Numbered from the stretch's first letter, positions 17,980-57,452 are shown. The stretch: DNA of 64,000 nucleotides from Candidatus Roizmanbacteria bacterium RIFCSPHIGHO2_02_FULL_37_13b (GCA_001789395.1 MFZK01000014.1:47130-111129), one strand, 5' to 3'. Translations and numbers: made by a program. The notes: generated by a model from the letters alone, not told the origin.

Positions 17980-18435
17980 ATGCCTAAAAAAAGTACAGCA
18001 TTAAAATATTACCAAGCGATCGGTAGACGTAAATCTGCCACAGCAAGCATCAGGCTTCATCTGGCTACAAAAGAAAAAGAGATAACATTTGGTGATAAAA
18101 AGGTAAAAAAGGGCGAAATTTACGTAAACGGTCAACCGATTGATAAGTATTTTAGCGGCGAGTCCAACAAAGTAGAATATCTAACTCCATTGAAATTAAC
18201 GGATAATCTGGATCGATTTGCCATCACTGTTAAGGTCGTAGGCGGTGGCAAGGCCGGCCAACTTGACGCTATAGTCTTAGGTATCTCACGTGCTCTTGAG
18301 AAAGTAGATAAAGCTACCTATCGTCCTATTCTTAAAAAGCAAGGTCTTCTGACCCGCGATGCCCGAATCCGTGAGCGACGCAAAGTCGGCATGGGCGGGA
18401 AAGCGAGGAGGAAGAAACAGTCGCCTAAACGATAA
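17980..18435 (+). CDS. rpsI: 30S ribosomal protein S9
   Basis: GRRKSATASIRL and GLLTRDARIRERRKVG...ARRKKQSPKR motifs. Confidence 0.95.
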   Translation: MPKKSTALKYYQAIGRRKSATASIRLHLATKEKEITFGDKKVKKGEIYVNGQPIDKYFSGESNKVEYLTPLKLTDNLDRFAITVKVVGGGKAGQLDAIVLGISRALEKVDKATYRPILKKQGLLTRDARIRERRKVGMGGKARRKKQSPKR

Positions 18436-18561
18436 GCTTGTTCTTCCGACGATGTCCCGTCAAATCGCACCACGAGCCGTGTTCGAATAGAACTGAAAAG
18501 GCGAGTGGTAAGATCGTGTTGGGGCAAGACGCAAGAAACAATCTCCAAAGCGATAAAACCA

Positions 18562-18828
18562 TCAACTCATCATTTGTCTCAATATTCTATAAATATCCTT
18601 TCTATGAGAAATCAGGATAATATACACTATTTGCTTTTGTTGTCGATAGACGATCCGATAATCGCCGACTCTGATGCGAAAGACATCCCGATAGCCTTTG
18701 AGTTTCTCTTCATTTAGATGAATATTGCTATCACGAAGACTTCTTATTTTTTGAGCAATGGCAATTTGATCTATTTTAGTGAGATGACGGAGACTTTTTT
18801 CTGCTTGAGGAGAAAGAATGATCCTCAT
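18562..18828 (-). CDS. type II toxin, RelE/ParE superfamily
   Basis: 88 aa. KLKGYRDVFRIRVGDYRIVYRQQKQIVYIILISHRKDIY is the typical RelE/ParE C-terminal signature. 4-nt overlap with the upstream antitoxin. Confidence 0.85.
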   Translation of the reverse strand: MRIILSPQAEKSLRHLTKIDQIAIAQKIRSLRDSNIHLNEEKLKGYRDVFRIRVGDYRIVYRQQKQIVYIILISHRKDIYRILRQMMS

Positions 18829-19064
18829 ATTCCAAGTTCATTTGCTACATCTTCAAAATTTTTTCCCTTTTTAAAGTCTGCGGAGACTACCGCTTTGTTA
18901 TCAATATAATTCTCAATATAAGCCATAAGCTTTTCATAGAGATCTTTGCCGATAAGATAGGCTTTTACTTGATTTCTTTTTTCAACTGCAATCGGATAAT
19001 CGAATGCACGATCAATAATCTTTGCCGGTCTGGATTTTAGTTGTGAGATAGAAACTGTGTTCAT
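18825..19064 (-). CDS. type II antitoxin, Phd/YefM-like
   Basis: MNTVSISQLKSRPAKIIDRA...PIAVEKRNQVKAYLIGKDLYEKL. The track ORF extends to 19094, but ATG 19064 gives the family-typical N-terminus. Confidence 0.8.
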   Translation of the reverse strand: MNTVSISQLKSRPAKIIDRAFDYPIAVEKRNQVKAYLIGKDLYEKLMAYIENYIDNKAVVSADFKKGKNFEDVANELGI

Positions 19065-19100
19065 ATAGACATAATAATAAGATATTATTAACATATTGTC

Positions 19101-19133
19101 AAGACCTATTATAAGGTCTTATTAATAGACCTT
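19101..19133. promoter_or_regulatory. candidate antitoxin operator: AAGACCT-N6-AGGTCTT inverted repeat plus a third AGACCTT half-site
   Basis: AAGACCT at 19101-19107, AGGTCTT at 19114-19120, AGACCTT at 19127-19133. It sits in the divergent intergenic region just upstream of the TA operon. Confidence 0.5.
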
Positions 19134-19204: not shown

Positions 19205-21343
19205 ATGGACGAACATAGGCCTGTTGTTAATTCAACAACTTCTCCAGAACTACAATTATTTAAAGAACCTATAATAGAAGAACAATTACATGCTCTTGAA
19301 AAAGCGCTTCTCGAATATAAGCGACCTGATTCTTTAGATTCAGCATATACAGCCGTTCTACAAATTCCTGGTATCGAAGTATATGGTCTGTCGGTAGATA
19401 GATCAATAGACGAATCAGCAGATGATTTAAAACGAATGACTGATGATATCATGAATGGATCAGAACAGTTCGCTGCTCCACCGTTACTTGCAGGTTCAGC
19501 TCGTTGGACAGATTCAGAAACTGCTGAATTTATGGGTAAACATCCTGCATATAGACCTCAAATAGAATTACCAGAAAAGCCAGAAGAACGAATAAAAGTA
19601 TATTTACCAGTTTTAAACTTGTTGACTCATCGCATTCATCGCGTGGAAGAACAACTGCACGAATCACCGGATTCCACTGACTTGCAGAAGCTTCGAAGAG
19701 ACCTTCATAATCAGCGCAGTATGATGTATCTGGGGTTACTAGTTGAATTTGGAGGTCCGTTTAAACGAGCTGCCGAAGATCAATTATGGCTGTATGATCC
19801 TCGAGAGGATGAGGAAGCGGGATATATGAATCCACAAAAATCAAGGTTAATTGGTGATGTAGTAGAAAGTATTGCTACTGAAGAAGGAGTTGATATAGCA
19901 GAATTAAAACAGAAAGTCCTTGATGCTACATATGATGGCGATCTATCTTTAATTAATACTTTTTTATTTGGGAAACAGGGCGACCATGCGACTCGTCGAG
20001 CACTTGAGGAGATATTAGATCGAAGAGTATCAGATAGACAGTGGCAAGCAAGCGTTTTAAGATCGGCCTATGTGTTGGAATTATTTAGACAGAGATCTGG
20101 CCTCACTCTGGACGATATGATGATGTATAACGGACTTCCTTCCTTAGATGTTACTTTACAAGGATTACGTGATTTTGCTGCAAGCACTCAACTTCATAAT
20201 GATCTTAGTGCTCATATAGCTGTTGAAGCTAAACCAGAACAGGATGCAGCAGGTGAGCAACATAGGCCAATGCAGATGTATCGATTAATAGAGGAACGGG
20301 CGATTAGAAGAGGTTTTGCCGATCGTTTACCTAATAGAGAAAGAGCTACAGAGTATGCTAGAAGCTTGGAAGTCTTATGGAATAAATTATTTCCTTTAAA
20401 TACTAGATTAGCCGGAGATTACTCATGTCATTTATTGACTAGACGAGGCGCCAATCAACGCGCTGGTGCTAATACTTATTATACCGGTGATATGGAGCAT
20501 CCAGGAACCGTTCATGTTTTACATATTCCTACAATGGATACAGTGCAACTTCCCGCATATTTACCTCATGAAAAAGGTCATGAAAAGCATGCTCAAGTTG
20601 TCGCATTAGCAGGTGAGAAAGGTTTAGCAGAACCAAGAGCTTATGAATCTATCCCTGGTGGTGTTAGTGAAGCGATTGCTATGTTACTTGAAACATCATT
20701 TCCTCCAATTGCCGATGAAGAAGGTATTCGATACGTTGGTGATCCTTCTGAGACAAATAAAGATGTCCCACCAGTGGAAAAACCCGATGGCGTAACGACA
20801 AAAGATTTATATCAAACCGTTGTCATGCGAGCATTTCAAGCTATAAAAGGTTTTGCGGGAGGGGAGGCTCGACGTCAGTTGCAGGATTTTGTATCCAGAG
20901 GGACTCAATTTAAACAAAGTGAAGCAGATGATCTTGTTCCTCAAATAGATGCTGAGGTATTAAAACTTGCGAACTCAACCGGAGTGGATTTTGGTGCAAG
21001 AGGTTCCTCATTGGGTTATTTACTGCTTGAATTATGGAATCCTGGTGACGGTAGTATTTATATCGCTAGTAAATTACCGCAAGTAGATTATGGATTAGAA
21101 GAAGAGTCAGGATCAGACGAAGAAGGAGCTGAAGAGACCGATATAGACTTAGCTTATGAATTTACGTCTCGATATGGAGAAAAATGGCTAGATAGGACAG
21201 AAGCTCGACAACATTTAATTGCCTTAATGTATCGAACAGACTCTGAACGTAATTTAGCGAAATTAGCTGAATTTATAAGAACAGCAAAACCTGAGGAAGT
21301 TGAGCAGACCCTTGAAGAACTAGGTCTATCGGATTATATATAA
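19205..21343 (+). CDS. acidic 712-aa putative zinc metallopeptidase (gluzincin, M2/M3/M32-like signature), otherwise unrecognised
   Basis: PHEKGHEKH (HExxH, HExGHxxH as in M3) is followed 30 residues after the second His by GGVSEAIAMLLE. Compare the ACE motif HEAIGDVL and the thimet oligopeptidase motif EAPSQMLE. No signal peptide. D/E-rich and K-poor, unlike neighbouring proteins. Confidence 0.5.
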   Translation: MDEHRPVVNSTTSPELQLFKEPIIEEQLHALEKALLEYKRPDSLDSAYTAVLQIPGIEVYGLSVDRSIDESADDLKRMTDDIMNGSEQFAAPPLLAGSARWTDSETAEFMGKHPAYRPQIELPEKPEERIKVYLPVLNLLTHRIHRVEEQLHESPDSTDLQKLRRDLHNQRSMMYLGLLVEFGGPFKRAAEDQLWLYDPREDEEAGYMNPQKSRLIGDVVESIATEEGVDIAELKQKVLDATYDGDLSLINTFLFGKQGDHATRRALEEILDRRVSDRQWQASVLRSAYVLELFRQRSGLTLDDMMMYNGLPSLDVTLQGLRDFAASTQLHNDLSAHIAVEAKPEQDAAGEQHRPMQMYRLIEERAIRRGFADRLPNRERATEYARSLEVLWNKLFPLNTRLAGDYSCHLLTRRGANQRAGANTYYTGDMEHPGTVHVLHIPTMDTVQLPAYLPHEKGHEKHAQVVALAGEKGLAEPRAYESIPGGVSEAIAMLLETSFPPIADEEGIRYVGDPSETNKDVPPVEKPDGVTTKDLYQTVVMRAFQAIKGFAGGEARRQLQDFVSRGTQFKQSEADDLVPQIDAEVLKLANSTGVDFGARGSSLGYLLLELWNPGDGSIYIASKLPQVDYGLEEESGSDEEGAEETDIDLAYEFTSRYGEKWLDRTEARQHLIALMYRTDSERNLAKLAEFIRTAKPEEVEQTLEELGLSDYI

Positions 21344-21394
21344 ATTTTGAATGAATCTATATAATTAGACATTATTCTAATTTTTCTTCTTCTT

Positions 21395-21423
21395 TTGACT
21401 ACCTATAGTCTACATACTATAAT
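21395..21423 (+). promoter_or_regulatory. near-consensus sigma70 promoter in the island intergenic region
   Basis: TTGACT at 21395-21400, a 17-nt spacer, then TATAAT at 21418-21423. Confidence 0.6.
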
Positions 21424-21429
21424 GCAGTA

Positions 21430-21482
21430 TCCCAATATGAAGCACTGAAGATATATTGCTTATCTTAATGAGTGCTGTTTTT
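21430..21482 (+). ncRNA. candidate short transcript or leader ending in an intrinsic-terminator-like hairpin
   Basis: Starts about 7 nt after the -10 box. Hairpin AGCACT(21441-46)...AGTGCT(21471-76) has an inner AAGATA/TATCTT pairing, followed by GTTTTT. Confidence 0.3.
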
Positions 21483-21679
21483 ATGGGTCGAAGCTCTCTT
21501 TTATTAGAGGAGCGGAGATCCCTACCGAAGTCCCGACTTTGCGTCGGGACGAAGGGGGAATTTTTTTGCACTTTGGCACTTTGACCCAGCTAGAACTCTT
21601 ACTTCGGTCTGAGAGGCTTACAGCCTCCCACTCCCGAGGAGTGAGTCTACTGGGTTTGCAGTGCTACACACTTTTACAA

Positions 21680-21693
21680 CAAGTGAGTTATTT
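21680..21693. repeat. left copy of 14-bp inverted repeat CAAGTGAGTTATTT flanking the high-GC cassette
   Basis: Perfect reverse complement of 23585-23598. Confidence 0.7.
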
Positions 21694-21696
21694 GTA

Positions 21697-21741
21697 TATG
21701 TCATTGCGAGGATCCCGCTCAGCGGGGGACGAAGCAATCTA
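21697..21741 (+). repeat. TGTCAT...ATC hairpin repeat (TGTCATTGCGAG-GATCCCGCTCAGCGGGGGA-CGAAGCAATC)
   Basis: Shares the TGTCAT 5' end, a GC hairpin core (CCCGC/GCGGG) and an ATC 3' end with the two units at 46689-46745. Confidence 0.6.
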
Positions 21742-21756
21742 GTCACATCTTTAAAA

Positions 21757-21814
21757 TATCCAGCAAGGAGATTTGTATATATGTAAACATATATACAGTT
21801 CGACTTGCTGGATA
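21757..21814. repeat. 58-nt nested perfect hairpin
   Basis: Outer stem TATCCAGCAAG (21757-67) pairs with CTTGCTGGATA (21804-14). Inner stem TGTATATATG (21774-83) pairs with CATATATACA (21788-97), with loop TAAA. Confidence 0.85.
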
Positions 21815-21815
21815 A
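21803..21815 (+). repeat. left copy of direct repeat ACTTGCTG(G)ATAA at the low-GC/high-GC transition
   Basis: ACTTGCTGGATAA here and ACTTGCTGATAA at 23604-23615. Confidence 0.6.
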
Positions 21816-21929
21816 GCCAGCAATATAGAGAAAGGAGAGGACTAACCCGAGCCGGCGGTTCCGGCAAAAACCTCGTTTTCAGGCGAGGATCGTAGACTAC
21901 GAATAAATAAAGAAAGGTTTGTTAATCAC

Positions 21930-23432
21930 ATGGACATTCACGTCCACCATGGACCAATCCAGACGACAGCCGCAGACGCAATCGTCGTCAACCTCTTTCA
22001 AGGTGTCACTCACCTGGGTGGTGCCACCGGAGCCGTCGATGCCGCCTTGGGCGGCCAGATCAGCGCCGTGATCGGTAGCGGCGACTTTAAGGGCAAGCTT
22101 GGCGAGACGCTTGTCCTATACGGTCGTGGCGTCATCCCGGCCTCCCGTGTGATCGTGGTGGGTCTCGGCAAGGCCGAGGAATTCATCCTGGACACCGTAC
22201 GGTGTGCCGCGGCCGCGGCAGCCCTCGCTGCCCGCAAGCTGGGTGCCCGGAGTCTCGCCACGATCGTGCATCGGGCCCGCGGCGACCAGTTAGATCTCGC
22301 CGCTGAGGCTCAGGCGCTGGTGGAGGGCACACTGCTCGCACTCTACGAGTTCAAGATCTACAAGACACAGGGGGATGAGACACCTTCCCAGGTAGAGTAC
22401 CTGACGGTGGTCGAGACGGATAGCGACCGGCTCGAGGCCATTAGTTCAGGTATCGTGGCCGGCGAGGCTGTGGCAGCCGGGGTGATCCTTGCTCGCGACC
22501 TGGCCAACCATCCGGGCAACGTGGCCACGCCGACGTACTTGGCAAACCAGGCCGTGGCGTTGGCCGAGCGTCACGGAATGCGTGTCGAGGTCTGGGATGC
22601 CGATCGAATGCGTGCTGAGGGCATGGGCGCGTTCTTGTCGGTCTCGGCCGGCTCGGCCGAGCCGCCGAAGTTCATCATCGTGGAATACGCGCCGACCGGC
22701 GACGCGGTACTCTCCCCCCACGTGTTGGTCGGGAAGGGGGTTACCTTCGATACCGGCGGCATCAGCCTCAAGCCCGGAGCGAAGATGGGTGACATGAAGT
22801 TCGACATGGCTGGCGCCGCCGCCGTGCTGGGGACGATGGAGGCCGTCGGTCGACTCAGTCTTAACAGGCGGATCGTCGGTCTCATCGGAGCCACCGAGAA
22901 CATGCCCGGTGGTAAAGCGACCAAGCCTGGTGACATCGTGAGGACCTTGACCGGCGCCACGGTCGAGATCGTCAACACCGACGCCGAGGGGCGTATGGTG
23001 TTGGCCGATCTCCTCGGATTCGCCCGTCGTCTTCAGCCGGCGGCGGTGGTGGATCTGGCGACGCTGACGGGCGCCATCGTCGTCGCGTTGGGGAGTCAGT
23101 ATGCAGGCCTCTTCGCGAACGACGACGCTTTGGCCTCCGCCTTGCAGGTTGCAGGCGAAGCGACCGGTGAACCTCTCTGGCGCATGCCGTTGGGGAAGCG
23201 ATACGATGACATCGTCAAGAGCAAGGTCGCAGATATGGCCAACTTGGCCCCAGGAAGTCCGGTGCCGGCCGGAGCCGTAAACGGCGCCAAGTTCCTGGAG
23301 CGCTTCGTGCAGTACCCGTGGGCGCACCTCGACATCGCTGCCACCGCCTGGGATGCCAAGGATATCTCCTATATCCCCGAAGGAGCTACCGGATTCGGGG
23401 TGCGGCTGCTCGTCCAGTGGCTGCGTGCCTGA
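21930..23432 (+). CDS. pepA: leucyl aminopeptidase, peptidase family M17; strongly GC-rich relative to the rest of the window
   Basis: 500 aa with the M17 signature NTDAEGRMVLADLL and VGKGVTFDTGGISLKP. GC-rich codon usage produces long spurious antisense ORFs (for example 22446..23327). Confidence 0.93.
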   Translation: MDIHVHHGPIQTTAADAIVVNLFQGVTHLGGATGAVDAALGGQISAVIGSGDFKGKLGETLVLYGRGVIPASRVIVVGLGKAEEFILDTVRCAAAAAALAARKLGARSLATIVHRARGDQLDLAAEAQALVEGTLLALYEFKIYKTQGDETPSQVEYLTVVETDSDRLEAISSGIVAGEAVAAGVILARDLANHPGNVATPTYLANQAVALAERHGMRVEVWDADRMRAEGMGAFLSVSAGSAEPPKFIIVEYAPTGDAVLSPHVLVGKGVTFDTGGISLKPGAKMGDMKFDMAGAAAVLGTMEAVGRLSLNRRIVGLIGATENMPGGKATKPGDIVRTLTGATVEIVNTDAEGRMVLADLLGFARRLQPAAVVDLATLTGAIVVALGSQYAGLFANDDALASALQVAGEATGEPLWRMPLGKRYDDIVKSKVADMANLAPGSPVPAGAVNGAKFLERFVQYPWAHLDIAATAWDAKDISYIPEGATGFGVRLLVQWLRA

Positions 23433-23441
23433 GCCGTCGGT

Positions 23442-23496
23442 GAGGGGGGCGGCGGCAACGTCGCCCCCCTCGGCCGTCCTTCTTCAAAGAAGGACG
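23442..23496 (+). terminator. two GC-rich hairpins downstream of pepA
   Basis: GAGGGGGGCG (23442-51) pairs with CGCCCCCCTC (23462-71). CGTCCTTC (23475-82) pairs with GAAGGACG (23489-96). There is no clear U-tract. Confidence 0.45.
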
Positions 23497-23584
23497 AAAA
23501 AGTGAACCGGTAGGTTCAAAGATTGGAGGATCACAATTTGCATAGATCCATTTTTCCAGTCTAACCAACTTTACCCGGTCCATA

Positions 23585-23598
23585 AAATAACTCACTTG
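23585..23598. repeat. right copy of 14-bp inverted repeat (AAATAACTCACTTG)
   Basis: Perfect reverse complement of 21680-21693. Confidence 0.7.
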
Positions 23599-23603
23599 CT
23601 CAC

Positions 23604-23615
23604 ACTTGCTGATAA
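23604..23615 (+). repeat. right copy of direct repeat ACTTGCTGATAA
   Basis: Matches 21803-21815 except for one G indel. It is also the 5' arm of a local hairpin (23606-23631). Confidence 0.6.
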
Positions 23616-23699
23616 ATTGTTTTTATCGGCAGATGAGAGAAAAAGATAAAGACAAGAGGATTGAGCATGGAGAATAGAGATTAGTAGTTAGAGATTAGA

Positions 23700-24008
23700 T
23701 TATTTTATTAAATTACAACGATGAGTAAGTATATTTCCCCAAGTCATCATACTTTCAGCCCATTCTAGATTATCAGTTGGGCCGCTTAAACCTTTCTTTT
23801 TAAGTTTGGGATATTCGTTTATAAAATTTTGAATAGTTCTTTGAAGAATTATCGGTAAAATCTGTAGATTAATTTTATTTATATATTCTGTATTTTCTTC
23901 CAAAAAAATACCAATCCGTTTTTTTTTGGCATTATAATCATCCGCTGCCCAGTTACCGACGCGGTTCAAATTCATGGCGATGTCCAATATTAACGCTTTG
24001 TTATCCAT
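23700..24008 (-). CDS. hypothetical small helical protein (102 aa)
   Basis: ORF with host-like AT-rich codon usage. No family recognised. Confidence 0.5.
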   Translation of the reverse strand: MDNKALILDIAMNLNRVGNWAADDYNAKKKRIGIFLEENTEYINKINLQILPIILQRTIQNFINEYPKLKKKGLSGPTDNLEWAESMMTWGNILTHRCNLIK

Positions 24009-50630: not shown

Positions 50631-51509
50631 ATGCAGAAACTTAATAATGGAAATATAAAATTAGCGATTCAAAAGAAAGGTCGATTGAGTGAGGATTCGA
50701 TTGAATTTTTGCGAAAAGCTGGTCTTGAGTTTGAATCCTACAGTAAAAGCTTATTTGCCTCTTGTCGCAATTTCCCACTAGAGATTCTTTTTGTGCGTGA
50801 TGATGATATTCCCGATTACGTTGAGACGGGGGTAGTTGATCTTGGGATTGTTGGTCAAAATCTGCTTAATGAACTGCAACCAAAGGTAAAAAAGCTTTTA
50901 AACTTACGATTTTGCTTCTGCTCTCTTTGTCTTTGCGTGCCTAAAGACTCTTCAATTTCAGACTTTTACGATTTAAACGATGCGAAAGTGGCTACCTCAT
51001 ATCCAAACTCGACTAAATATTTTTTGCTAAAAAACAATATTAAAGCCAAAGTAATTACGATAAACGGTTCAGTTGAAGCAACTCCAGTTTTGGGAATTGC
51101 CAATGCCATAGTCGATCTTGTCTCAACCGGAAGTACTCTTTCAGCCAACGATCTAAAAATAATCTCCAAATTATATGATTCTGAGGCGATTTTAATATCA
51201 AATATTAATTTATTGACTAATAAAAAAAAGAATGCACTTGTTAATAAACTACTTACTCGATTCAAGGGAGTATTAGTGGCTAAAAACTATAAATATGTAA
51301 TGATGAATGCACCGGAAAAAATACTTCCGAAAATTAATAAAACTATTCCTGGATTGAAATCGCCAACGATTTCTCCACTTAATTCAAAAGGGTGGATTTC
51401 TATTCAATCAGTGATCAAAGAGGACGTATTTTGGGAAACCATTGAAAAGCTTAAAAAAATTGGCGCGACGGGAATTTTGGTATTGCCAGTTGAAAAATTG
51501 ATTCTATGA
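50631..51509 (+). CDS. hisG: ATP phosphoribosyltransferase, long form
   Basis: IKLAIQKKGRLSE, DIPDYVETGVVDLGIVG and LVSTGSTL motifs. At 292 aa it includes a C-terminal regulatory domain. Confidence 0.93.
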   Translation: MQKLNNGNIKLAIQKKGRLSEDSIEFLRKAGLEFESYSKSLFASCRNFPLEILFVRDDDIPDYVETGVVDLGIVGQNLLNELQPKVKKLLNLRFCFCSLCLCVPKDSSISDFYDLNDAKVATSYPNSTKYFLLKNNIKAKVITINGSVEATPVLGIANAIVDLVSTGSTLSANDLKIISKLYDSEAILISNINLLTNKKKNALVNKLLTRFKGVLVAKNYKYVMMNAPEKILPKINKTIPGLKSPTISPLNSKGWISIQSVIKEDVFWETIEKLKKIGATGILVLPVEKLIL

Positions 51510-52795
51510 AAGTCACAAAACTCTCTGATTTATCAAAAAAAGATTATGAACGAATAGTAAGACGATCATTTGGTACTAATCTATCTATTATGCCTAATGT
51601 TAAAAAGATTATCCGAGATGTTAAGACGAACGGAGATAGTGTAATTATCAATAATTGTCAAAAAAATTATGGTATTCAAAATCTTGACAATCTTCAGGTA
51701 ACGCAAAGTGAAGTGAAGAATGCATATTCCCAAGTAGATAAAACAACAATACAAGCATTGAGACAAATGATAAAAAATATTACCTTAGTTCACAAGGCAC
51801 AGCTTCCTCGCAAAAAAGATACAATTGTGCAAACGGAAAAAGGTATTCGTGTTTGGCGCGAATGGAGAGCGATTGAGAAGGTTGGATTATACGTTCCGGG
51901 AGGAAAGGCAATATATCCTTCATCAATATTGATGAGTGCTATACCGGCACAAATTGCGGGGTGCCGCGATATTATTCTTTGTTCTCCAGCAAAACAAGAC
52001 GGAAACATGTCTGCGGCAACCATTATTGCTGCTGATCTAATTGGGTTACGGAAACTATATAAAGTTGGAGGCATTGAAGCAATCGCGGCAATGGCTTATG
52101 GTACAGAAACGATTCCCTGTGTTTATAAAATTTTTGGGGCAGGCAATGCGTATGTTACTGCTGCAAAAATGTATGTGTTTGGAGACGTTGCCATCGATAT
52201 GCCTGCTGGTCCTTCGGAAATATTTATTATTGCTGATAAAGAGGCAAATCCTAAGTTTATAGCTGCAGATTTACTTGCCGATGGCGAACATGGAACAGAT
52301 TCAGCATGTGTGCTTATCACTACGTCGCAACAAATTGCTAAAGAGTCAATCAAGCAAATTGAAAAACAATTACAAAGCTTGAGAACCAGAGACCGTATAG
52401 AGGAATCTATTAAAAGATATGGATTGTTTGCGATAGTTAATTCACTTGATGAAGCCGTTTCATTTGCTAATGAATATGCGCCGGAGCACTTAGAAATTAT
52501 GACAAAAAATCCTGAAAAATTGGTTGAAAAGATAACTAATGCCGGATCAATTTTTCTCGGCGATTGGACATCAAAAGCTACGGGAGATTATGCAACAGGC
52601 GCCAATCACGTGTTACCAACTGGGGGTACAGCCAAAATGTATTCACCACTTGGAGTTGATGCATATGGAAAATGGATGCAAGTACAAGAATGCACGAAAG
52701 ACGGTCTAATGGCGATAAAAAAAACAATAGAAACTATTGCTGAAGTTGAGCAATTACCAGCTCACAAAAATTCAATATCAGTTCGATTTGCATAG
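51506..52795 (+). CDS. hisD: histidinol dehydrogenase
   Basis: VGLYVPGG, AGPSE, EHGTDS and APEHLE motifs. Confidence 0.95.
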   Translation: MKVTKLSDLSKKDYERIVRRSFGTNLSIMPNVKKIIRDVKTNGDSVIINNCQKNYGIQNLDNLQVTQSEVKNAYSQVDKTTIQALRQMIKNITLVHKAQLPRKKDTIVQTEKGIRVWREWRAIEKVGLYVPGGKAIYPSSILMSAIPAQIAGCRDIILCSPAKQDGNMSAATIIAADLIGLRKLYKVGGIEAIAAMAYGTETIPCVYKIFGAGNAYVTAAKMYVFGDVAIDMPAGPSEIFIIADKEANPKFIAADLLADGEHGTDSACVLITTSQQIAKESIKQIEKQLQSLRTRDRIEESIKRYGLFAIVNSLDEAVSFANEYAPEHLEIMTKNPEKLVEKITNAGSIFLGDWTSKATGDYATGANHVLPTGGTAKMYSPLGVDAYGKWMQVQECTKDGLMAIKKTIETIAEVEQLPAHKNSISVRFA

Positions 52796-52796
52796 T

Positions 52797-53864
52797 ATGA
52801 AAAATAATAAATACTTTTCAAAAATAGCAGAAAAAATTGTTCCTTATCAATGGGAAGAGAGTTTGTCTGATGAAGTATTACGATTTGACACAAATACAGT
52901 TCCATTTCCGCCACCAAATTTGCAACGATTTTTTAAATCACTTGGCAATAATTGTCCTATCAATGAATATAAAGATCCGTCATATAAAAAACTGGAAACT
53001 CTTATTGCGCAATATGAAAAAGTCCAATCAGACATGATTACGGTGACAAATAGTGGCGATGAAGCGCTTGACATCTTAGCTAAGACATTTTTGGACGATG
53101 ACGATACATTCTTGGTAACGCCGCCGACTTACGAAATTTTTTCAATTCAGTGCGAACTTAATAAAGGACGAAAAGTTGAAGTCCCGCTTTCAGGCAAATT
53201 ATTTAACGTTAATACCAATAAAATTATTACCACAACAAACGAACAAAAAGTTAAACTTATTTTTCTGTGCAATCCTAATAATCCAACAGGCACAATTATT
53301 TCTCAAAGTGATATCGAAAAAGTGGTTCGATGCTGTTCAACTATAGTAGTTGTGGATGAAGCATACCGTGAATTCTATGGCAATAGTTCGGTTACACTTC
53401 TTAAAAAATACGATAATTTGGTAATTCTACGTAGTTTTTCAAAATTTGCTGGTATTGCCGGTGCGAGAGTAGGATATCTTATTGCTAATTCTTTTTTGTC
53501 ATCTAAATTTCACAGCATTCGTTTCCCGATGGGAGTGAGCTATTTTTCGTACAAACTTGCTGAATGGGTACTTGAGAATGATCAACAATGGATGAATCAA
53601 CAAATTGAAATGATTAAAACCGAAAGAGAAAGGCTTTCAAACAAATTATTAGTAATGGGTTTTTATGTCTTGCCATCAAAGGCAAATTTTTTGCTGGTAA
53701 ATATTGGAGCTCGTGTTAAGGAAATACAAGACAAGCTTAAAAAGAAGGGCATATTAATTCGTGACCGTAGTTCAAAAAAATATTTGACAGGATGTGTACG
53801 GATTACAGTTAGGAGTCGCAAAGAAAATGATGTATTAATAAATGCACTAAAAAAAATTGTATGA
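52797..53864 (+). CDS. hisC: histidinol-phosphate aminotransferase
   Basis: ORF 52737..53864. ATG 52797 follows the hisD stop. NPNNPTG, and SFSKFAGIAGARVGY with the PLP Lys. Confidence 0.9.
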   Translation: MKNNKYFSKIAEKIVPYQWEESLSDEVLRFDTNTVPFPPPNLQRFFKSLGNNCPINEYKDPSYKKLETLIAQYEKVQSDMITVTNSGDEALDILAKTFLDDDDTFLVTPPTYEIFSIQCELNKGRKVEVPLSGKLFNVNTNKIITTTNEQKVKLIFLCNPNNPTGTIISQSDIEKVVRCCSTIVVVDEAYREFYGNSSVTLLKKYDNLVILRSFSKFAGIAGARVGYLIANSFLSSKFHSIRFPMGVSYFSYKLAEWVLENDQQWMNQQIEMIKTERERLSNKLLVMGFYVLPSKANFLLVNIGARVKEIQDKLKKKGILIRDRSSKKYLTGCVRITVRSRKENDVLINALKKIV

Positions 53865-54502
53865 AACTGAATTATGATGGATTAATTTTTGATATGGATG
53901 GAGTATTAGTTGATGTATCACGATCTTATCGTGAAGCAATTCGACAAACCGCGAGTTATTTTCTGAACCGAAATGTGTCGATGAATGAGGTAACTGAAAT
54001 AAAGAATAAAACCGGTATGAACAATGACTGGGATGCGACAATCGCATTAATAAATAACAAAAAAATTTCATTCAAATCTGTAAAAAAATATTTTCAATCA
54101 CTCTATTTGGGTAATAAAAATACGAGTGGACTTATCGATAATGAAAAATTATTAATCTCAAAAATGATGCTCGTAAAGTTAAAAAAGAAATATAAAAAAA
54201 TAGCAATCGCTACGGGAAGGCCGCGAAAAGAAGCAGAATATGTTATGAAAAAAAATATGCTTCAGAGAGTATTTGATTGCTTGATTGCAAGGGAAAACGT
54301 AAAGAGAGACAAACCGGCACCGGAATCGATCATAAAAGTCATAGAAATTCTTGGGCTTAATAATACGGTTTATATCGGCGATAGCCCAAGTGATGTATCT
54401 GCGGCAAAAAATGCCGGGATACCAAGTATATATGTAGGTGATCAAAATATTGGAACAATGCGTTTTCCAACAATATTACAAGTTATTAAATATCTATTAT
54501 GA
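53861..54502 (+). CDS. HAD-superfamily (subfamily IA-like) phosphatase embedded in the his operon; candidate histidinol-phosphatase
   Basis: DMDGVLVD motif I, ATGRP motif II region and GDSPSDVSAAKNAG motif III. ATGA overlaps with both hisC and hisB. Confidence 0.6.
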   Translation: MKLNYDGLIFDMDGVLVDVSRSYREAIRQTASYFLNRNVSMNEVTEIKNKTGMNNDWDATIALINNKKISFKSVKKYFQSLYLGNKNTSGLIDNEKLLISKMMLVKLKKKYKKIAIATGRPRKEAEYVMKKNMLQRVFDCLIARENVKRDKPAPESIIKVIEILGLNNTVYIGDSPSDVSAAKNAGIPSIYVGDQNIGTMRFPTILQVIKYLL

Positions 54503-55089
54503 AAAGAGCTAGTCAATTAAATAGAAAAACAAATGAGACGGAAATTTCCATAGATTTAAACATTGAGGGAACCGGAAAAAGAAATATCGATACCCCTATT
54601 GGTTTTTTGAATCATATGCTTGATTTATTTGCAAAGCATGGCTTGTTTAATCTGAATATAAAAGCAAGCGGAGATACATTTATAGATGATCATCATACAG
54701 TTGAAGATTTGGGAATTGTTTTAGGGAGTGCATTTGGTAAAGCGCTTGGTGATAAAGCAGGAATTAATCGATATGGTTTTTTTATATTACCGATGGATGA
54801 AGCGGTGGCCACGGTCGCAATCGATTTTTCAGGACGATATGCATTTTCATTTGACTGTAATTTTAAGCGGGAAAAAGTCGGCAATTTATCAACGGAGCTA
54901 ATTTATGATTTTTGGGATGCGTTTGCCCAAAATGCCAAAGTTAACCTATATATAAAAGTTGAAAATGGTCGAAACGATCACCACAAAATTGAGGCTATAT
55001 TTAAGGCATCGGCTAGAGCAATTCGGTCGGCATGCGAGTTAGATAAACGAGCTATATTTGAAATTCCGTCAACGAAAGGAATTTTATGA
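54499..55089 (+). CDS. hisB: imidazoleglycerol-phosphate dehydratase (monofunctional)
   Basis: RKTNETEISIDLNIEG, DDHHTVEDLGI and NDHHKIEAIFKA motifs. Confidence 0.95.
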   Translation: MKRASQLNRKTNETEISIDLNIEGTGKRNIDTPIGFLNHMLDLFAKHGLFNLNIKASGDTFIDDHHTVEDLGIVLGSAFGKALGDKAGINRYGFFILPMDEAVATVAIDFSGRYAFSFDCNFKREKVGNLSTELIYDFWDAFAQNAKVNLYIKVENGRNDHHKIEAIFKASARAIRSACELDKRAIFEIPSTKGIL

Positions 55090-55706
55090 TCACAATTGTT
55101 GATTATGGCTTAGGGAATTTGGGAAGTATTAAAAATGCTTTTGACAAGCTGAACATTAATTCTGTGATTTCAAGTTCGGCAAAAGAAATAGAGAAAGCCA
55201 CAGGGATTATTTTCCCGGGTGTTGGGGCAGCTGGTGCTGGCATGAAAAATTTAAGGGAAATGGGATTAGATGAAATAATTGAATCATTGATTCGAGTAGA
55301 AAAACCGTTACTTGGAATTTGCCTTGGTATGCAACTTTTCATGTCATTTAGCGAAGAGGGAAATGTTAACTGTCTCAATTTGATCAATGGGAATGTTAGG
55401 CGATTTAATACAAAATTTAAAGTGCCGCAGACGGGTTGGAATCAAGTTAAAAAAAATAGAGCATCAAAATTACTAAAAGGAATCAATAACAATTCTAATT
55501 TTTATTTTGTTAATTCATATTATTGTGATCCATTTGACAAAAAAATTGTAAAAGGAGTTACAGAATATGGACAAACATTTTGTAGCGTTTTTGAAAAGAA
55601 AAATATTTTTGGTGTTCAGTTTCACCCAGAAAAAAGTGGAGAAAATGGATCGCAGTTATTAAAAAATTTTACCGACATAGTCTATGAAAATACTACCTGC
55701 AGTTGA
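55086..55706 (+). CDS. hisH: imidazole glycerol phosphate synthase, glutaminase subunit
   Basis: IVDYGLGNLGS, GICLGMQ and GVQFHPEKS motifs. Confidence 0.95.
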   Translation: MITIVDYGLGNLGSIKNAFDKLNINSVISSSAKEIEKATGIIFPGVGAAGAGMKNLREMGLDEIIESLIRVEKPLLGICLGMQLFMSFSEEGNVNCLNLINGNVRRFNTKFKVPQTGWNQVKKNRASKLLKGINNNSNFYFVNSYYCDPFDKKIVKGVTEYGQTFCSVFEKKNIFGVQFHPEKSGENGSQLLKNFTDIVYENTTCS

Positions 55707-56397
55707 TATAAAAAACGGTAAATGTGTAAGGCTGACACAAGGTGATTATAGTCGAGAAACGATCTATGAAAATGATCCAGTCATAATTGCAAAAAAATGG
55801 CAATCTCAGGGTGCCAAAGATCTTCACATTATTGATCTTGATGGCGCCAGAGAAGGAAAAACAATTAATCTAAAAGTCATTGCTGACATTATCGAAGACA
55901 CAGGTCTTACGGTGCAGGTTGGAGGCGGTATTCGCACCATCAAATCTGCACAGAAATATTTTGAAATTGGAATGTCAAGATTAATTTTAGGAACTGTGGC
56001 AATAGATAACCAAGAATTGTTGAAAGAATTTATCGATAAGTTTGGAGAAAAGATAATTGTATCGCTTGACGTGAAAAATAAAAAATTAGCCAAAAAAGGT
56101 TGGATTAATTTAAGTAACGATGAATTAATTCCAAAAGCTAAAGAAATTGAACAATTGGGTGTTAATACGATTATTTATACCGATACAAATAGAGATGGAA
56201 TGTTAACAGAACCTAACTATAGAAATATTGTCGGGTTAAAGAAAGCCGTAAAAATTAATGTGGTAATTGCAGGCGGTGTTACAAATATAGATCAAGTAGC
56301 AATACTAAAGCGATTGAAAGTTGATGGAATTATTATCGGAAAAGCCTTGTATGAGGGTTCTATAAATTTAGAGGAGGTACTAAAATATGCTGACTAA
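55684..56397 (+). CDS. hisA: ProFAR isomerase
   Basis: [24 protein letters not shown] and VGGGIR motifs. Confidence 0.94.
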
Positions 56398-57145
56398 ACG
56401 AATTATTCCGTGCTTGGATGTTGATGATGGACGCGTTGTTAAAGGAGTCAATTTTGTAAATATTGTGGATGCTGGTGATCCAGTTGAACTGGCTAAAATA
56501 TATAACAATGAAGGAGCTGATGAGCTCGTTTTTTTAGATATCACAGCATCAAGCGATAACAGAAAAATCATGATAGATATTGTAAAAAAAGTCGCCAAAA
56601 AAGTGTTCATTCCCTTTACTGTTGGTGGAGGAATTAGAACCATTGAAGATATTAAAAACAATCTTATCGCTGGAGCAGACAAAATCGCAATTAATACATC
56701 TGCAGTAAAAAACCCACAATTAATTAAACGAGGAGCGAGTATGTTTGGTAGTCAATGCATAGTTGTTGCAATTGATGCAAAAAAACAGGGCAATAGCTGG
56801 GAAGTATTCATTAATGGAGGACGAACGGCAACAAGAATAAATGTTTATGACTGGGTACAAAAAGTAGTTCAACTTGGAGCAGGTGAGATTCTTTTAACCA
56901 GTATGGATCGAGATGGAACCAAAGACGGGTATGATATCGAGTTAACTAAAAAAATATCAGAAAATGTGTCGGTTCCAGTTATTGCTTCAGGTGGTGCAGG
57001 AAGCCTTCAAGATTTTGCACAAATATTTAATGATGGAAAAGCTGACGGCGCACTTGCTGCATCATTATTTCACTATGATGAATTAAAAATTGCTGACTTG
57101 AAACAATATTTATTACAAAGTCAAATTCCAATGCGAATAACATGA
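56387..57145 (+). CDS. hisF: imidazole glycerol phosphate synthase, cyclase subunit
   Basis: [22 protein letters not shown] and [12 protein letters not shown] motifs. Confidence 0.96.
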
Positions 57146-57146
57146 C

Positions 57147-57452
57147 ATGGAAAAAAAATTGATACCAACGATTATTCAAGATTATAAAACCAATGATGTG
57201 TATATGTTGGGGTTTAGTACTACAGAGTCATTAAAGAAAACAAAAAAAACAGGTCTGGTTCACTTTTGGAGTCGTAGTAGAAAGAAATTGTGGAGGAAAG
57301 GTGAAGAATCAGGTAATTCATTACAAATAAAAGAAATATTTTTTGACTGTGATAACGATTCACTATTATTTAAAGTTAAACTTATAGGAAAATATACTTG
57401 TCATAAGAATCGGACAAGTTGTTTCTTTAATAAATATGATGACATTAAATAA
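57147..57452 (+). CDS. hisI: phosphoribosyl-AMP cyclohydrolase
   Basis: SRSRKKLWRKGEESGNSLQI...DCDNDSLLFKV...CH motifs. Confidence 0.92.
   Translation: MEKKLIPTIIQDYKTNDVYMLGFSTTESLKKTKKTGLVHFWSRSRKKLWRKGEESGNSLQIKEIFFDCDNDSLLFKVKLIGKYTCHKNRTSCFFNKYDDIK

Follow-up and report, generated by a model that had tools for sequence, protein, structure and literature searches.

The window analysed here is a stretch of 64,000 nt from Candidatus Roizmanbacteria bacterium RIFCSPHIGHO2_02_FULL_37_13b (GCA_001789395.1, MFZK01000014.1:47130-111129), a member of the Candidate Phyla Radiation (CPR) from the Rifle aquifer. It is an ordinary piece of an AT-rich chromosome, in which the S10-spc-alpha ribosomal cluster is accompanied by genes for glycolysis and the cell wall and by the his and suf operons. 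Downstream of the ribosomal protein gene rpsI lie a ParE/Phd toxin-antitoxin (TA) module, the gene of an orphan 712-aa protein (p712) and pepA, which encodes an M17 leucyl aminopeptidase and stands between non-coding, hairpin-rich flanks carrying a perfect 14-bp inverted repeat (IR, with arms IR-L and IR-R; Table 1). In a sister species, RIFCSPLOWO2_02_FULL_38_10 (contig L079, reached via the Phd antitoxin cluster and 88% identical in RpoA protein sequence), the same flanks were found to enclose a different GC-rich gene. We consider it probable that pepA is an intact foreign gene lodged in a conserved non-coding slot for exchangeable cargo, by the ParE/Phd module downstream of rpsI.

The coding sequence (CDS) of pepA (21930-23432) has a GC content of 64.3%, with fractions of 0.69, 0.48 and 0.77 at the first, second and third codon positions (GC1, GC2 and GC3), as compared to ~35% and a GC3 of 0.22-0.33 for the host chromosome and to a GC3 of 0.22-0.38 across fifteen other genes of the window. 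When the 64 kb were divided into bins of 500 nt, none outside the pepA region exceeded 47% GC. These bin and GC3 figures bear out the first-pass annotation, made from the sequence alone, in which the pepA unit was described as the GC-richest part of the window. The abrupt change of composition that it also reported holds for the right edge, at ~23500, but not for the left edge, which is stepwise: hairpins of 50-57% GC start at ~21480 and are followed by an AT-rich palindrome (21757-21814) before the sequence becomes GC-rich again at ~21841. Long antisense open reading frames (ORFs) had been said to appear only here. The longest in the window (293 aa, 22446-23327) does lie inside pepA, but antisense ORFs of 100-129 aa are also present elsewhere in the window and the claim was therefore slightly overstated. 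The relative synonymous codon usage (RSCU) of pepA correlated negatively with that of host genes (r = -0.53) and positively with that of a homologue on a 70%-GC contig (r = +0.66).

Pfam recovered both domains expected of the product, the catalytic Peptidase_M17 domain (PF00883, 4.7e-119) and the N-terminal domain (PF02789, 2.8e-26). Since the protein is full length and retains in the alignment all residues invariant among its nine closest relatives, it looks like a functional M17 aminopeptidase. The conserved positions include the NTDAEGR motif and K269, D274, K281, D292, D351, E353 and R355, residues with metal-binding and catalytic roles in the M17 family; private substitutions at otherwise conserved columns number seven, within the range of the relatives. 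In the protein search, the best 120 matches were 52-70% identical and none outside this species exceeded 70%. All ten named matches belong to the Chloroflexota (Ardenticatenia, Anaerolineae, Promineifilaceae). Three of the closest homologues share the neighbourhood MTHFR-ThiS-MoaE-pepA, continued in two of the three by LipA-PHP-TsaD, and the two of these donor-like contigs whose DNA was compared both have 70% GC. DNA similarity to them is limited to the CDS (21946-23433), and their MoaE, ThiS and LipA proteins had no match in the flanks within the window. The gene is absent from the orthologous position in both the sister species and a more distant relative (L025). Viral contigs contained pepA relatives of at most 44% identity and no match to two words of the framework, and plasmids yielded matches only to unrelated pepA genes (64-68% DNA identity). 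We conclude that pepA is foreign and was acquired horizontally from a high-GC, Chloroflexota-like donor, and recently so, as its synonymous sites are not yet host-like. Composition, RSCU and homologues thus support the single-gene acquisition from a high-GC donor proposed earlier. The gene is probably expressed, and its likely role is to release amino acids from peptides for a host that lives by scavenging. No publication describing this locus, or a transfer of pepA into CPR bacteria, turned up in a literature search.

The cargo of the sister species, OGK56058.1, is a 580-aa DUF885 protein with an HEIVGH motif (HExxH), 62.5% GC and a GC3 of 0.75, named Peptidase M3A/M3B catalytic domain-containing in UniRef; its RSCU correlates with that of pepA (r = 0.76). 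Its arrangement was reproduced in the independent JGI and ENA contigs L080, L083, L084 and L088. pepA and the DUF885 gene occupy the same site between a left flank of 107 nt (21387-21493) and a right flank of 207 nt (23438-23642) that are respectively 87% and 92% identical, the arrangement that defines minimal mobile elements. Both species share the order promoter, 5' hairpin, IR-L, B'/B hairpin, cargo, hairpins Hp1 and Hp2, nested domain, IR-R and terminal hairpin. By comparison, DNA identity between the window and L079 is 73% in the ribosomal block, 77% in ASL, 75.5% in VanW and 95% in the ParE/Phd module, and the ASL-VanW intergenic region gave no alignment. Interspecies homology passes beyond both repeats, covering 21387-21493 to the left of IR-L and 23599-23642 past IR-R. 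Since the sister has the same slot with a different GC-rich foreign gene, the slot is, on this comparison of sequences, older than its cargo and the cargo is exchangeable.

Table 1. Features of the slot and its upstream neighbourhood, in window coordinates.
Feature	Coordinates	Strand	Basis or remarks
Duplicated rpsI 3' end, GARRKKQSPKR-stop	18521..18556	+	Read from sequence; homology with sister starts inside the copy
ParE toxin and Phd antitoxin module	18562..19094	-	Pfam; in sister directly abuts left framework
712-aa orphan protein (p712), HEKGH motif	19205..21343	+	Between TA module and slot promoter
Left framework block 1	21387..21493	+	87% identical to sister; near-consensus promoter and conserved 5' hairpin (AGCACT...AGTGCT)
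Sigma-70-type promoter TTGACT-17-TATAAT, directed at cargo	21395..21423	+	11/12 matches; sister TTGACA-17-TATAAT, 12/12
Hairpin inserts, window lineage only	21494..21667	+	Absent from sister leader
IR-L, CAAGTGAGTTATTT	21680..21693	+	13/14 conserved in sister
Small GC-rich hairpin, ATTGC...GCAAT, inner CCCGC/GCGGG stem	21703..21738	+	Carries GGGACGAAG, a word also at 21546
B'/B hairpin, arms TATCCAGCAAGG and CTTGCTGGATA	21757..21814		Arms kept in sister; loop 34 nt here, ~80 nt there
Possible framework Shine-Dalgarno GAAAGGAGAGG	21830..21840	+	May align with GAAAGGTAG before sister cargo ATG; weak alignment
Cargo leader: GC-rich mini-hairpins CCGGCGGTTCCGG and CCTCGTTTTCAGGCGAGG, then AT-rich stretch	21841..21929	+	Sequence
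pepA, M17 leucyl aminopeptidase, 500 aa, OGK20620.1	21930..23432	+	Full length; NTDAEGR motif; Pfam and alignment
Right framework, ~205-207 nt	23438..23642	+	92% identical to sister; Hp1, Hp2, nested domain, IR-R, terminal hairpin
IR-R, AAATAACTCACTTG	23585..23598	+	14/14 in sister; exact complement of IR-L
Terminal hairpin CTCACACTTGCTGATAAA / TTTATCGGCAGATGAGAG	23599..23639		Sister homology ends at 23642

The leader between promoter and cargo contains two hairpins found in the window lineage only, a terminator-like stem (GTCCCGAC/GTCGGGAC core) that precedes a T7 run (21517-21567) and a second hairpin of ~93 nt (~21575-21667). Further on, the B'/B hairpin keeps the arm words CCAGCAAGG/CTTGCTGG in both species, and 21830-21840 would represent the last plausible framework homology before the cargo. 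The cargo itself (~21841-23437) lies inside the inverted repeats and consists of a mostly GC-rich leader of 88 nt followed by pepA, whose own Shine-Dalgarno sequence (AAGAAAGG, 21910-21917) falls in the AT-rich stretch of that leader. The slot holds this cargo ORF only and carries no mobility genes. On the right side, Hp1 (23443-23470), a GC-rich stem of ~12-13 bp closed by a GCAA (GNRA) loop, begins 5 nt past the pepA stop codon and 23 nt past that of the DUF885 gene, and is followed by Hp2 (23478-23493) and the nested domain (23502-23583). These two hairpins had been attributed to pepA and its donor; they are part of the framework, the stem and loop of Hp1 being identical in the sister species and Hp2 differing there at 3 positions. 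The right flank also contains an antisense ORF of 69 aa; as it lacks a Pfam match and is frameshifted in the sister by a 1-nt indel, it was treated as non-coding. An Rfam scan of the 64 kb returned nothing at the gathering threshold, and the flanks gave only noise-level matches to miRNA-like hairpins.

Two further observations were made on these hairpins. In this lineage only, the promoter is followed about 100 nt on by the terminator-like hairpin and its T7 run (21395-21567), and the pair could produce a small RNA of ~135 nt or attenuate transcription into pepA. A small GC-rich hairpin, GTCCCGAC...GTCGGGAC, in many instances with GAAG after it, recurs at 21530-21550, at 21713-21734 and at 4880-4905 of L079, where the CCAGCAAGG/CTTGCTGG hairpin has it nested in its loop; this motif might represent a miniature insertion element.

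The perfect 14-bp inverted repeat noticed in the first-pass annotation is present as claimed (21680-93 and 23585-98), with no further copy in the window even when two mismatches were allowed. An exact inverted match of at least 14 nt between flanks of the same size arose in 2 of 5000 shuffles and in 3 of 1530 sliding placements on the real window, each of which traced to a single 16-nt pair, and a probability of ~0.009 followed from how often 14-mers were seen to match the remainder of the window by chance. The repeat is nominally significant, yet it was found post hoc. Its arms could pair in an mRNA with a calculated duplex energy of -16.6 kcal/mol, a pairing that could accompany any DNA-level model. 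Both copies of the direct repeat reported alongside it (ACTTGCTGGATAA, 21803-15; ACTTGCTGATAA, 23604-15) are also in place, but their longest exact common word, 9 nt, equals the chance median. Each copy is part of a hairpin: the left one forms the 3' arm at 21757-21814, where the arms measure 28 nt, and the right one the 5' arm at 23599-23639. Real support for both repeats comes from the sister species only: the same IR arms and the same CTTGCTG motif flank a different gene there, so that they predate the cargo and belong to the framework. This contradicts their earlier interpretation as target duplications or scars of the pepA insertion. The CTTGCTG(G)ATAA hairpin motifs may have an att-like role.

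Upstream of the slot, the 107-nt spacer between the intact rpsI gene (ending at 18435) and the TA module contains a duplicated rpsI end that repeats the last 11 codons and looks like the footprint of a recombination anchored at the 3' end of rpsI. The 95% identity of the TA module (18544-19131 in this comparison), against 73% for the ribosomal genes, suggests a recent exchange. Three Logan contigs from different runs all begin at 19102, in the palindromic operator region (AGACCTATTATAAGGTCT). The region that houses the slot is highly variable and mosaic; in the distant relative L025, VanW directly follows rpsI. No homologue of p712 was found among 5.8 billion clustered proteins and it shows no similarity to the DUF885 cargo; its GC1 is high (0.58), its GC3 host-like (0.22) and its HEKGH motif HExxH-like. 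The p712 gene is absent from the long contigs of the sister species and is found after a sister-type backbone in two short contigs (L081 and L082). Two other contigs are also mosaics: in L085 a window-type rpsI is followed by sister-type TA module, flank and DUF885 gene, and in L090 the segment from DUF885 through the tail to TrpR is 100% identical to L079 and ASL is 8.8% divergent. These mosaic contigs may be either true recombinants or strain-level assembly chimeras.

In the reading that we favour, that of a slot with replaceable cargo, the slot would serve as a ready-made expression platform offering a promoter, a Shine-Dalgarno sequence and 3' stabiliser or terminator hairpins, and co-occurring Roizmanbacteria would exchange slot and cargo by taking up DNA and recombining it within the conserved flanks. 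We infer both the platform role and this exchange, the latter from the mosaic pattern of identities, the duplicated rpsI 3' end and the mosaic contigs, which are possibly artefacts. Transformation is not known from this CPR bacterium.

Several points weigh against this reading. Only two alleles of the slot were found, so that any 'family' rests on two species from one aquifer, and neither an empty slot nor an intermediate was recovered from searches with p712 and the nearby protein p383, the p712 contigs or a 45-mer scan of metagenome contigs. The high identity of the flanks could reflect one recent exchange between the two species and not functional constraint. That none of the 59 base pairs predicted in the right flank is broken by the 16 interspecies differences speaks for a preserved structure, but this count is biased, the prediction having been made on those very two sequences. 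The terminator-like hairpin stands between the promoter and pepA in the window lineage, and the promoter may therefore not drive pepA here. Lastly, some of the mosaic contigs may be assembly chimeras.

A first alternative is site-specific cassette capture, in which the CTTGCTG-armed hairpins and the 14-nt motifs of the IR arms (A motifs) would act as integron-like sites, a recombinase encoded elsewhere would move the cargo together with its 205-nt tail, and the direct repeats would be the crossover cores. It is attractive because both ends share one layout, in which the 14-nt motif precedes a hairpin whose arms are of the CTTGCTG type. The left hairpin has moreover kept its arms and changed its loop between the species, as attC sites do, cargo-specific sequence starts right after it, the two unrelated foreign ORFs end 5-23 nt ahead of the same Hp1, and a TA module adjoins, as in chromosomal cassette arrays. 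We nevertheless regard this alternative as unlikely. Pfam scanning of the genes in the 64 kb revealed no integrase, transposase or recombinase, and neither an RYYYAAC...GTTRRRY pair spaced 50-140 nt apart (21300-23800, either strand) nor an ATAA-N6-TTAT core is present. The cassette is single in each genome and forms no array, its tail occurs just once in the 64 kb, the direct repeat shrinks to only ~8-9 nt in the sister species, and the contigs showed neither a circular nor an empty form. More speculatively, the slot might be the docking site of an undescribed CPR gene-capture system, functionally integron-like without a recognisable integrase or attC, in which the A motif and the CTTGCTG hairpins would direct the entry of foreign ORFs with the 205-nt tail behind the promoter; we hold this to be rather doubtful.

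Under differential loss, a single GC-rich donor fragment would have carried the DUF885 gene and pepA in tandem, each lineage would have deleted one of them, and the flanks would be the ancestral insertion site. The two genes are close in GC content (62.5% and 64.3%), in GC3 (0.75 and 0.77) and, as noted above, in RSCU, and 11 nt around the TGA just past the DUF885 stop of the sister (TGGGCGCCTGA) resemble the 3' end of pepA (TGCGTGCCTGA). However, none of the three donor-like neighbourhoods has a DUF885 gene beside pepA, and no remnant of either gene was detected in the other species. Both lineages would have had to lose a whole gene cleanly and yet retain the same sequences proximal to the Shine-Dalgarno and to Hp1, and the scenario leaves unexplained why the flanks are far more similar than the housekeeping genes, so that we think it improbable.

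It is still less credible that the segment 21680-23598 is a non-autonomous transposon of the mobile insertion cassette type, moved in trans by a transposase recognising the 14-bp repeats. A perfect repeat of this length is statistically unusual and is conserved around another passenger gene in the second species, but interspecies homology runs outside both arms (21387-21493 and 23599-23642), no target-site duplication abuts them, the IR word is not repeated elsewhere in the 64 kb, no transposase lies nearby, and the element sits at the same chromosomal site in both species. A one-off illegitimate insertion among chance repeats would fit a direct repeat that by itself is no better than chance and an inverted repeat found post hoc, but IR arms, hairpin arms and both flanks are kept around different cargo in the sister, and we give this scenario very little credence. 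The possibility that the locus is an assembly chimera, joining Roizmanbacteria flanks to the gene of a high-GC organism, finds some ground in the contigs that often terminate within pepA, in one contig (L027) that is truly chimeric and in a second NCBI genome without annotated pepA between OGK53302 and OGK53303, but is extremely unlikely, as the junctions are spanned at 100% identity by contigs that derive from several samples and were assembled by at least four pipelines, the breaks fall mainly at a GC-rich palindrome inside the gene (22608-22662) and not at the junctions, and both halves of pepA are equally related to the same homologues.

The contigs compared came from ENA megahit assemblies, JGI assemblies, the original ANAN16 scaffolds and Logan unitigs, and covered several samples. 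The left neighbour p712 was found on 22 contigs, all of which run into pepA or end in or before it, and the right neighbour, a 102-aa protein, on 16, of which the eight listed all run into pepA or end before it. Both AT/GC junctions are 99.9-100% identical to the window in every listed contig and base-identical in more than 15 independent contigs, and the reproduction of these junctions in many independent assemblies refutes the chimeric join that the first-pass annotation had kept as its alternative. Contigs break within pepA and not at its edges: left-hand contigs stop at 21929-22651 and right-hand contigs begin at 22617-23521. The hot spot of these breaks is the GC-rich palindrome TCGGCCGGCTCGGCCGAGCCG (22608-22662), which shows 12 clustered mismatches in one assembly (L013/P0001) and a 9-bp deletion (GSA) in P0123. 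Such a pattern is what a GC-dependent dip in coverage would produce at a genome coverage of 11-13x. The IR-bounded segment has an identical orientation in all contigs recovered, which speaks against an inverton.

Contig L027 (ENA ERZ27254842 k141_916284) begins with lptG and the 5' half of pepA in a Pseudomonas-like, 62%-GC version and continues with the 3' half of the Roizmanbacteria pepA and its AT-rich right flank. The fusion point corresponds to 22726-22743 of the window, inside the sequence coding for the conserved TFDTGGISLKP motif, and the fused ORF is the database protein P0022, a 497-aa hybrid of 63% identity. The AT/GC junctions of interest are unaffected by this chimera. In RIFCSPLOWO2_02_FULL_36_11, the second genome of the species (OGK53298-OGK53309), the 102-aa and 712-aa proteins carry the consecutive accessions OGK53302 and OGK53303; the missing pepA probably reflects a gap within the gene, an empty slot being the other option. 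No empty site was seen among the 22 p712 contigs, nor through p712, which has no homologue, or p383, which has a single one, 34% identical and in a non-syntenic context. A scan of the genome contigs with p712 and a scan of metagenome contigs with a 45-mer from the 3' end of its gene gave no match. A 22-mer from the right flank matched only the sister species among the metagenome contigs, and an RpoA scan of the genome contigs returned only moderately distant relatives (L024-L026).

Elsewhere in the window, a near-complete histidine operon (hisG, D, C, B, H, A, F, I) together with PdxS/PdxT was observed at 50631-57452; the CPR are usually described as being without amino-acid biosynthesis. CPR bacteria (Patescibacteria) combine tiny genomes with a presumed dependence on other cells, and to our knowledge little has been established about the ways in which they acquire genes or about the donors. 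The main value of the present locus is the two-species evidence for a conserved, repeat-bearing slot with alternative foreign cargo in a CPR bacterium, since at exactly the same non-coding position two co-occurring Roizmanbacteria species carry unrelated peptidase-type genes, both of them fully foreign in composition. If the slot proved general, it would offer a searchable signature of recent gene acquisition in CPR genomes and a concrete pair of candidate recombination sites, and would allow DNA donors, possibly hosts, to be inferred; here the donor looks like a member of the Chloroflexota. Were the capture system true, GC-rich cargo would likewise report the organisms, possibly the hosts, from which these episymbionts draw DNA. 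It is to be noted, as a practical warning, that genome cleaning based on GC content would drop pepA as contamination, and that assemblies break or turn chimeric inside the gene.

How the locus relates to known systems may be considered in turn. In the amelioration framework of Lawrence and Ochman, compositional islets reportedly derive from recent horizontal gene transfer. pepA resembles such islets in that the shift in GC and codon usage is confined to one gene that has its homologues in a distant phylum and is absent from relatives, and differs from the classical case in that the same position holds a second, unrelated foreign gene in the sister species. Mobile insertion cassettes and passenger miniature inverted-repeat transposable elements carry a passenger gene between short inverted repeats without a transposase. 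The present unit shares this organisation; unlike them, it has homology beyond the repeats, no target-site duplication, no other copies in the 64 kb and an orthologous site in two species. Integron cassettes consist of a single ORF with a structured attC repeat of conserved arms and variable centre, and form arrays behind a platform promoter through the action of IntI. The tightly bounded single ORF, the structured tail, the hairpins with conserved arms, the upstream promoter and the nearby TA module recall such cassettes and clusters of attC sites lacking integron-integrases (CALINs), whereas no IntI was found in the window, the R''/R' core consensus is lacking, the cassette is single, and its 205-nt tail is not repeated on the left.

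Two further systems offer partial parallels. In the dif modules of Acinetobacter plasmids, one or a few genes, commonly TA genes, lie between inverted pdif (XerC/XerD) sites without an internal recombinase and are shuffled between replicons (PMC6449649, PMC6160057). The present locus is similarly a discrete unit between inverted short sites, with no internal recombinase and a TA neighbour, but it is chromosomal, its IR arms do not show the 11-6-11 dyad of the 28-bp XerC-spacer-XerD sites and neither flank contains ATAA-N6-TTAT, with the reservation that the lineage's own dif may diverge. The Correia repeat-enclosed elements of Neisseria are small inverted-repeat hairpin elements in intergenic leaders that can create promoters and RNase III substrates (PMC2649163). 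The small hairpin inserts of the leader (21494-21667, 21703-21738) are comparable in kind, although unrelated in sequence and not known to be multicopy.

By analogy, the behaviour of the locus is closest to that of the minimal mobile elements of Neisseria, in which differing cassettes devoid of mobility genes occupy one site between conserved flanks and are presumed to be exchanged by transformation and homologous recombination (PMC1538595, PMC3082526). The flanks of the Neisseria elements are conserved genes, whereas here they are non-coding, hairpin-rich and furnished with inverted repeats, and the cargo is compositionally foreign, with a GC difference of 30 points; common to both are alternative cassettes at one site and the absence of mobility genes from the cassette.

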